Shown here in pieces: positions 41,383-42,265 of a stretch of 54,562 nucleotides of DNA. The notes below the pieces were generated by a model, which did no database searches, had not been told where the DNA came from, and saw only the letters and a list, made by a program, of their open reading frames with translations. Location: the IMG/VR virus record IMGVR_UViG_2568526722_000002, positions 1 to 54,562 of that record; one strand, 5' to 3'. The first letter of the stretch is position 1, and the number at the start of each line of letters is the position of its first letter. Source of the DNA: a virus. Lineage: Duplodnaviria; Heunggongvirae; Uroviricota; Caudoviricetes. A program made the translations under genes and the position numbers.

Positions 41383-41779
41383 AATGGCCCCCATTGCATG
41401 TACTGTGTTTTTATACAGTATACCTATGCGCGGAAATGATCAACGTTTTAAGAGCACAAATTGTTAATTTTCTGTCAGTAGTAAAAAAAGAAAACCCGCC
41501 GTAGCGGGTTGAATTAGCGATGTTTTATTACGCCGCTATTTGTTTCTGCTGACAAAGCTCCTGTAGGTTAGCCCTAACCAGCGCCTCAGCGAGCTGATGA
41601 TTGGACAGCATTAACGCAATGGGTAATAGAAACCACAGAATGCACGAAATGGCGGTGGTATTCGCCATCTGTGACAGGTTGAATATTGCTCGAATTGTAT
41701 TGTTTGCACTTTAACGTTTCTGTTGTAGTGCCGGATGCATGCCACCGTATGTTCAGGACGATGGCATGCATATTATGGA

Positions 41780-42016
41780 TTACGATTTATCCATTCCCAG
41801 GGGATTAGGGTGAATTCCACTTACATGCCAGAACGCATGCTCTCTATTCAACTGATTTCCCTTTGGTATCAGGAAGCCATACGTCCCAGATTTAAAAGTG
41901 GCATGAGCGCAGATTAGACTTTCTCCTTCAAAGCTATACTCAGTCCCTTCAGGGATTAGAGAGTCAGTCTTGATCAGGTGAACAGTTCCGTTGATAGGGA
42001 TCATGTAATGGTGCAT
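41780..42016 (-). CDS. hypothetical small protein inside the cassette flanked by methylase-remnant repeats
   Basis: 78-aa ORF; no motif recognised. Confidence 0.35.
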   Translation of the reverse strand: MHHYMIPINGTVHLIKTDSLIPEGTEYSFEGESLICAHATFKSGTYGFLIPKGNQLNREHAFWHVSGIHPNPLGMDKS

Positions 42017-42115
42017 TTTAGGCTCCTCGTGTTGTGAAGAGCCTAATTATATCAGGTTTGAATCTACGTCATTGAAGTAGCAGGATTTGTTACACCATGT
42101 TCTGAAACTCGGACA

Positions 42116-42265
42116 TTAAGCTGCGATCTCTTTCTGCTGACAAAGCTCCGGTAAATTAGCCCTCACCAGTGCCTCGGCGAATGGCGGCGGAACTGCGTTG
42201 CCACAACGCGCAACCTGCTTGTCCTTCGCGTACTTCTGCCCCCGATAGTCCTGATCGATGATGTA
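42116..42265 (-). pseudogene. remnant 3' end of a C5-cytosine DNA methyltransferase gene
   Basis: Short frame encodes ...WYIIDQDYRGQKYAKDKQVARCGNAVPPPFAEALVRANLPELCQQKEIAA (GNAVPP is the C-terminal MTase motif); upstream frame is broken by a stop. Confidence 0.5.

Follow-up and report, generated by a model that had tools for sequence, protein, structure and literature searches.

A likely mosaic joint in a lambdoid prophage: repeated methylase 3' ends around a small conserved gene of the nin region

Introduction

According to a model built on experiments, the mosaicism of lambdoid phages is driven by short diverged homologies on which phage annealases act. Lambdoid Red and RecT-type systems act on sequences with up to 22% divergence, with contributions from Orf and Rap, and exchange by homology leaves traces of that homology where the swapped fragments end, the homeologous 'shoulders' (Martinsohn, Radman & Petit 2008, PMC2327257; De Paepe et al. 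2014, PMC3945230). Here we describe a locus in the nin region of an Escherichia coli lambdoid prophage with mEp237 and phi80 as relatives (IMG/VR record IMGVR_UViG_2568526722_000002, 54,562 nucleotides (nt); this whole stretch is called the window below), where two direct repeats derived from the end of a DNA methylase gene flank a cassette with a gene for a protein of 78 amino acids (aa). The arrangement also recalls the moron, a concept reportedly owed to Juhala, Hendrix and colleagues (HK97/HK022).

The reading that we favour, with a probability of about 85%, is that the locus is a mosaic joint: a methylase with its 78-aa module was joined to the methylase tail of another phage, the relic of that tail has recombined since, and the methylase was lost separately. 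The native unit would consist of a large C5-cytosine methyltransferase followed by an extended -10 promoter, a strong Shine-Dalgarno sequence and the 78-aa gene. In one ancestor, an illegitimate join would have connected this module to another phage's methylase about 63 nt before the stop codon of that gene, leaving a 21-codon relic (the left copy of the repeat) before the other phage's terminator and LexA-controlled dinI. The relic would be non-coding yet a working substrate for homeologous recombination: crossovers within it would swap the module downstream of the cassette (dinI or other genes) and crossovers between the two copies would delete a 588-bp unit. Later, separate deletions at microhomologies would have removed the methylase, each of them sparing the promoter and the 78-aa gene.

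The repeat pair and its origin

The top direct repeat that a repeat search found in the region is formed by 41527-41592 and 42115-42180 (66 nt, 83% identical, 588 nt from start to start), and the right copy aligns with the left copy of mEp237 in blastn at E = 5e-12. The elements involved, in the order in which they are read, are listed below (ORF, open reading frame; UTR, untranslated region).

42116-42284, minus strand: methylase 3' remnant of about 56 codons (..GFPEWYIIDQDYRGQKYAKDKQVARCGNAVPPPFAEALVRANLPELCQQKEIAA*), no start codon (three-frame translation)
42115-42180, minus strand: right repeat copy, identified as the last 21 codons and stop codon (42116-42118) of a large C5-cytosine methyltransferase
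42017-42114, minus strand: conserved intergenic region of 98 nt, putative promoter and 5' UTR of the 78-aa ORF
42054-42046, minus strand: extended -10 element TGATATAAT
about 42028-42023, minus strand: Shine-Dalgarno sequence GAGGAG
41780-42016, minus strand: 78-aa ORF (gp47 of mEp237, phrog_30079)
41735-41771, minus strand: hairpin beginning 9 nt past the stop codon of the 78-aa ORF
41593-41734, minus strand: non-coding spacer of the cassette
41527-41592, minus strand: left repeat copy, putative relic of the last 21 codons and stop codon of a second, diverged methylase allele
41483-41510, minus strand: intrinsic terminator, AACCCGCTACGGCGGGTT then a T run, directly past the stop codon of the left copy
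41401-41420: LexA (SOS) box TACTGTGTTTTTATACAGTA upstream of dinI, read from the sequence
41149-41382, minus strand: DinI-family gene (PF06183, E = 4e-26; the annotations of mEp237 and of E. coli genomes name it DinI)

Read on the minus strand, the right copy ends in ..ARCGNAVPPPFAEALVRANLPELCQQKEIAA and the left copy in ..AEALVRANLQELCQQKQIAA, and the translations of the two in the methylase frame are FAEALVRANLPELCQQKEIAA and LAEALVRANLQELCQQKQIAA. Sequence similarity traces both to the 3' ends of C5-methyltransferase genes. The right copy is identical to the tails of intact methylases in two IMG/VR loci (L028 and L040), and the methylase of E. coli H6 used as a tblastn query matches over residues 608-662 in a further locus (L017) that is identical to the window. 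The left copy gives a tblastn match to residues 642-662 of the H6 enzyme, at 86-90% identity. The longer remnant present in mEp237 matches the C-5 cytosine DNA methylase family PF00145 at profile positions 270-320 of 324 (E = 3.9e-7). The two copies thus appear to be the 3' ends of two diverged methylase alleles, which would be the reason why they are 83% rather than 100% identical. A sequence-only reading of this stretch had already seen direct repeats of a methylase 3' end on either side of an AT-rich cassette with a 78-aa ORF, and that description holds with its coordinates shifted by a few bases; translation, PF00145 and tblastn likewise bear out its view that the right copy is the end of a methylase remnant.

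Relatives with an intact methylase

The same reading had gone further and proposed a cassette swap by recombination within a former methylase gene. In its full form, this explanation holds that the cassette was swapped into the gene, splitting and inactivating it and leaving its 3' end on both sides. The window has features that fit: its methylase is a remnant, the cassette is flanked by methylase-tail sequence, and the G+C content between the repeats is 43-46% (41600-42100) against 55-67% in the adjacent replication genes (42100-43300). However, relatives in which the methylase is intact have the same cassette. Two of them (L028 and L040) are 99.9% identical to the window over 42284-39000 and carry upstream an intact methylase that matches residues 1-662 of the H6 enzyme at 89%. 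In four others (L030, L031, L037 and L011) an intact methylase of 649-737 aa ends in the right copy and is followed by the same promoter, the 78-aa ORF and the left copy. In this comparison with relatives, which the sequence-only reading had named as its own check, the intact gene ends at the right repeat, and none that spans both repeats was seen. The duplication accordingly predates the decay of the methylase and is independent of it.

Two further observations go against a cassette that split the gene. The methylase truncations have junctions of their own, far upstream of the repeats, and the 17% divergence of the copies speaks for two separate alleles, not for a single gene cut apart. Moreover, in diverged lineages the 78-aa ORF is the downstream neighbour of the methylase. 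Diverged homologues of 75-78 aa directly 3' of an intact methylase, without the left copy, are found in E. coli H6 (~45% identical) and in locus L013 (protein P0004, 39%), and because of these the 78-aa ORF is best regarded as the native downstream neighbour of the methylase, with no incoming swap. A third type of homologue (P0005, in L014 and L039) has the same promoter core and lies near an integrase, without a methylase. The Klebsiella phage 5 LV-2017 has the arrangement inferred for the ancestral neighbour, an intact methylase followed by the terminator and dinI with its LexA box, without the cassette. Taken together, we consider a swap into the methylase improbable. What survives of the earlier proposal is a separate cassette and recombination in methylase sequence; a swap that disrupted or replaced the methylase does not, nor does the loss of the enzyme through the arrival of the cassette, since it was lost by unrelated deletions of 2,865 bp (mEp237) and a further 718 bp (window).

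In the relatives the large methylase is always preceded by an overlapping ORF of 85-86 aa (MEPQLEYATKRIVELENLL...; L011 1509-3901, L013 1076-3923, L028 1264-3401), and in two of them (L011 and L013) a dATP/dGTP pyrophosphohydrolase gene (PF04447) is found just upstream. Such a gene set may represent a conserved DNA-modification module.

The left copy as a probable methylase stump

The terminator at 41483-41510 (-12.8 kcal/mol, z = -4.3) helps to place the left copy. The same element directly follows the intact methylase of Klebsiella phage 5 LV-2017, and it is probably the native terminator of the methylase in the relatives. The LexA box downstream of it fits the consensus CTGT-N8-ACAG and is kept in the Salmonella phage SEN34. 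In prophages that have no cassette, methylase-tail relics of different lengths stand before this terminator-dinI module:

ES8: 33 codons, reaching CGNAVPPPF, of the same allele as the left copy
ECCWS199: about 24 codons
SEN34: about 20 codons
ES7: about 15 codons

Since terminator-dinI modules elsewhere carry either an intact methylase or tail relics of differing length, the left copy is most simply understood as the stump of a methylase allele that formerly stood upstream of this module. In all the cassette-bearing loci the spacer meets the left copy at the same junction and the left copy opens with the same 17 nt, which argues for one founding illegitimate join. In one of the cassette-less prophages, ECCWS199, the nin region has an insert upstream of its methylase-tail relic and dinI, and a tRNA-Ile gene is annotated inside this insert (L043 2358-2449).

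A different view would be that the left copy has been kept for a function, either as the C terminus of a methylase-tail mimic, a membrane peptide of 46 aa, or as an RNA or DNA element for termination or for dinI regulation. In the window, the tail frame is indeed open, as part of a 46-aa ORF (41528-41668) that has an ATG and a hydrophobic N terminus and runs into the left copy. The frame is kept in three of the four relic types, whose differences are mostly synonymous, and relics precede the terminator in several unrelated contexts; a kept frame would also be expected of relics that each arose recently from a coding allele. Among the relatives the 46-aa ORF is not conserved, being interrupted in L011 by a 1-nt deletion and an in-frame stop and having no ATG in L007, and L030 and L031 enter the tail in another frame. 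The left copy itself carries a frameshift and a stop in L011, L034, L035 and L037. The ORF has no match in Pfam or PHROGs, and Rfam returned for the left-copy region only a sub-threshold chance match (anti-hemB, 17.8 bits against a gathering score of 49.5). The Gifsy-1, Gifsy-2 and SW-37 prophages match only in or near dinI, short of the relic. The SEN34 relic starts about 5 nt from that of the window and was considered as a sign of a fixed functional boundary; this was ruled out by the relics of about 15, 24 and 33 codons. A retained function is in our opinion very improbable, and the stump appears to be non-coding and decaying as coding sequence.

Exchange at the repeats

Left copies come in two sequence types that track the module downstream and have only their first 17 nt in common. 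One type joins the terminator-dinI module, the other a pair of ORFs of 107 and 194 aa, or a 60-aa ORF with a homologue of the theta subunit. Comparing the window with L011, the first 17 of 17 nt of the left copy are identical and then 37 of the last 49 (75.5%), while the rest of the cassette is 92% identical (P = 3e-4). This drop after nucleotide 17 points to a crossover inside the relic.

A synthetic 'empty-site' query and then a 140-nt probe served to find genomes without the cassette. Four complete E. coli genomes (WEM25, AR_0119, GPEC60-12-649 and M172-1) have the P gene and the ren'-methylase' junction of the window, no cassette, and a single methylase tail. This tail is a hybrid, with a right-type 5' end and a left-type 3' end. 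The WEM25 crossover falls within 19 identical nt, GGAGCTTTGTCAGCAGAAA, and over the joint WEM25 is matched at 100% by AR_0119 and GPEC60-12-649. In M172-1 the crossover comes earlier, within the 5-nt block GAGGC. Hybrid joints of two kinds on one derived background imply that the copies recombined on two or more independent occasions, and by parsimony the cassette would have been deleted at least twice through the repeats.

Empty sites of this kind, and direct repeats around a discrete segment of distinct composition, could also suggest a mobile element (a miniature transposon, an integron-like or a site-specific cassette) with the repeats as target-site duplication or attachment sites. Yet repeats of 66 nt with 17% divergence are unlike a target-site duplication, the ends of the cassette have no terminal inverted repeats, and neither a transposase nor an integrase is encoded, the only conserved ORF being the 78-aa protein, which has no Pfam match. 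Homologues of this ORF hold the same position without any repeat. Finally, the two natural deletions cross at different points within the shared identity, as homologous and not site-specific recombination would. We find a mobile element scarcely credible here. The locus has what a shoulder is described to have, a short diverged homology with an abrupt change in identity and recombinants that cross inside it.

The window encodes RecE (48339-51728, PF06630), RecT (51734-52852, PF03837) and NinG/Rap. By analogy with the experimental systems, it was probably the RecE/RecT, Orf and Rap proteins of the prophage that carried out these exchanges. The RecE homologue (48339-52852 with RecT, plus strand) is unusually long, 1129 aa, with an Exonuc_VIII N terminus and a PDDEXK-like C terminus; the RecT-family protein has 372 aa.

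Decay of the methylase

What the window retains of the methylase is the last ~8% of the gene, C-terminal codons that include the GNAVPPP motif, and the sequence upstream of them is ren', fused out of frame. A functional C5-methyltransferase would have the N-terminal AdoMet-binding FxGxG motif, the catalytic PC motif and the C-terminal motifs IX-X in one open frame with a start codon; this is not such a gene but a pseudogene fragment. Two features mark the fusion:

42276-42284: 9-bp microhomology deletion junction AAGCCCTGC
42156-42356, minus strand: chimeric 66-aa ORF, a product of the deletion (hypothetical protein WP_001299077.1 in the Prokaryotic Genome Annotation Pipeline, PGAP)

The region is 99.5% identical to phage mEp237 (NC_019704 / JQ182730), except for 718 bp that are absent from the window. 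In mEp237 the order is P, a ren-like winged-helix gene, gp45, a methylase remnant of 134 codons, an annotated promoter, gp47, DinI, gp49 and NinB, and the 718 bp take in the greater part of the ren-like gene, gp45 and the 5' portion of the methylase remnant. The two blastn segments between both genomes overlap by 9 nt, and mEp237 displays both parental sequences of the junction. In the chimeric ORF, 27 ren-like codons (MNITIREQVLAALRNNPGLNNAKLAGL) continue out of frame into methylase sequence; the intact Ren-like protein of mEp237 matches PF13412. The mEp237 record leaves the repeated methylase tail without annotation.

The remnant of mEp237 is in turn a deletion product. Compared with L028, 2,865 bp are absent with an overlap of ~13 nt at the junction, and the start of a 125-aa ORF is joined to about residue 540 of the methylase. 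For the window two origins are conceivable, an mEp237-like state or, by one larger deletion, an L028-like state. Independent truncations of the methylase in which the 78-aa ORF is retained were seen in mEp237/window, L032/L033, L034, L035, L036 and L007. That the 78-aa gene survives every one of the independent truncations seen argues for a function of its own.

The 78-aa gene

The 78-aa ORF is a real and conserved small protein of a tiny family. An exhaustive HMMER scan of 1.84 billion representative proteins gave five true members among nine hits, with 20 invariant columns across the five down to 39% identity, and a word-indexed protein search gave only two close clusters. Long repetitive hits of the HMMER scan (P0006-P0010) were set aside as spurious, and so were two weak Thermoleophilia matches, all that a scan of genome contigs for the family returned. 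The cassette is carried by 32 of 5,426 complete E. coli genomes, and in all 32 PGAP leaves the ORF uncalled and calls instead the chimeric ren'/methylase' ORF. One protein, P0003 (142 aa), has a YdaT-like N terminus, homologous to the ORF at 44037-44576 of the window, fused to residues 19-78 of the 78-aa ORF; it looks like a further deletion variant, from which the whole O-P-methylase region would have been removed.

In PHROGs the protein matches only phrog_30079, of unknown function, and it has no match in Pfam. Its best hit among PDB sequence profiles was not significant (E = 0.64), and the window ORF, P0004 and P0005 match none of the known anti-phage defence profiles of PADLOC-DB v2 (E <= 0.1). 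AlphaFold2 models five beta-strands and one helix (pLDDT, the predicted local distance difference test, 80.5), and this model found nothing significant among PDB and BFVD folds, the best Foldseek hit in BFVD having E = 0.016. A literature search on mEp237 found no paper that treats this locus.

The sequence upstream of the gene is conserved further than the gene. The promoter core GATGACGTAGATTyAAACyTGATATAAT is common to the window, H6, L014 and L039, though the proteins are only ~40% identical. Core and 5' UTR are ~89% conserved in L014 (1158-1318) and L039 (3370-3530), with the integrase adjacent and no methylase nearby; constraint appears to act more strongly on the regulatory region than on the coding region. 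Because this core is conserved and an extended -10 element is visible, the 78-aa ORF would be expressed from its own promoter; the depositors of mEp237 also annotated a promoter upstream of gp47. The hairpin at 41735-41771 (14-bp stem, 9-nt loop, no U tract, -21.8 kcal/mol, z = -4.0) is kept in L011 and weaker in L007, and is possibly the 3' end, a stabiliser or a weak terminator of the transcript. The homologue in H6 has a canonical terminator.

A tentative idea, unlikely as it stands, is that the protein may be an autonomous accessory factor under its own promoter and may have evolved its function together with C5 methylation. The methylase-tail relic would then be a built-in homology arm by which RecT-type recombination moves the gene in and out behind related methylases. 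Candidate functions would be an inhibitor of type IV (McrBC/McrA-like) methylation-dependent restriction, or another defence or counter-defence role still useful after the loss of the methylase.

Neighbouring genes

The remaining genes around the cassette are:

43985-43044, minus strand: O-like replication gene
43047-42358, minus strand: P-like gene
40783-41031, minus strand: 82-aa ORF between dinI and ninB, matching phrog_340 and phrog_1813 (function unknown)
40149-40748: NinB/Orf gene, annotated as NinB/Orf in the homologous mEp237 gene

Past NinB on the minus strand follow NinG and then Q. The 82-aa ORF accompanies dinI in mEp237, in SEN34 and in many prophages of E. coli. On the plus strand, an HTH_3 repressor-like gene (44911-45297) is directly followed by a 434-aa ORF without a Pfam match (45438-46742). 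The position past the repressor is often occupied, in lambdoid prophages, by exclusion or defence genes expressed in the lysogen.

Discussion

Several points weigh against the mosaic-joint reading or parts of it. The spacer 41593-41779 is seen in no examined locus that lacks the left copy. Loss of the cassette, as opposed to its never having been gained, is decided by parsimony (the shared derived junction and the two hybrid joints), and a crossover between phages within the tail would give the same product as an intramolecular deletion. The part given to RecET in these particular events is carried over from PMC2327257 and PMC3945230. As for the 78-aa gene, a generic sigma-70 consensus scan called no promoter upstream of it, and the ratio of non-synonymous to synonymous substitution rates (dN/dS) among close alleles is 0.26-1.08 on 5-17 substitutions, too few to inform.

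Public genomes preserve nearly every intermediate of the proposed history: a methylase still intact beside the cassette, two successive microhomology deletions in that gene, a downstream module swapped within the 66-nt relic, and two independent losses of the cassette through the repeats. The locus is thereby a concrete natural illustration of the model in which short diverged homologies and phage annealases drive lambdoid mosaicism. The repeats are, in this interpretation, scars of ordinary lambdoid module shuffling, a clean example of a known process and not a new kind of system, and the current understanding of phage evolution is left unchanged. For annotation, a 'methylase' at this place is a pseudogene scar. 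The only part with some potential for discovery is phrog_30079, a tightly retained small gene.

Comparison with known systems

The closest relative in arrangement is mEp237, with a cassette 100% identical and the same gene order; it differs in still having the ren-like gene, gp45 and the 134-codon methylase remnant, of which 718 bp are missing from the window. The large orphan C5-methyltransferases of nin regions in the H6 prophage (WP_073464677.1) and in Klebsiella phage 5 LV-2017 (ARB15725.1) resemble, at their C termini, the protein sequence of the right copy and of the 56 codons that precede it, with an identity of about 85-93% and including GNAVPPP. These enzymes are whole, whereas the window has only the last ~8%, with no start codon.

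With morons the locus shares a small gene with a conserved predicted promoter, a strong Shine-Dalgarno sequence and a hairpin after it, retained while its neighbours decay. The flanking genes are adjacent in relatives (methylase-terminator-DinI in Klebsiella phage 5 LV-2017 and the cassette-less joints in E. coli), and the base composition is unlike that of the neighbours (43-46% against 55-67% G+C). In contrast to a moron, the 78-aa gene would be an old conserved partner of the methylase and not a recent stand-alone insertion, and its putative terminator lacks a U tract.

The homeologous shoulders (PMC2327257, PMC3945230) are a further parallel. Here too a homology of 66 nt and 83% identity lies at a module border, natural recombinants cross inside it, and a RecT-type annealase is encoded together with RecE, Orf and Rap. 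The difference is that the homologous stretch is in this case a piece of a pseudogene present twice in the same genome, and therefore a substrate for intramolecular deletion as well.

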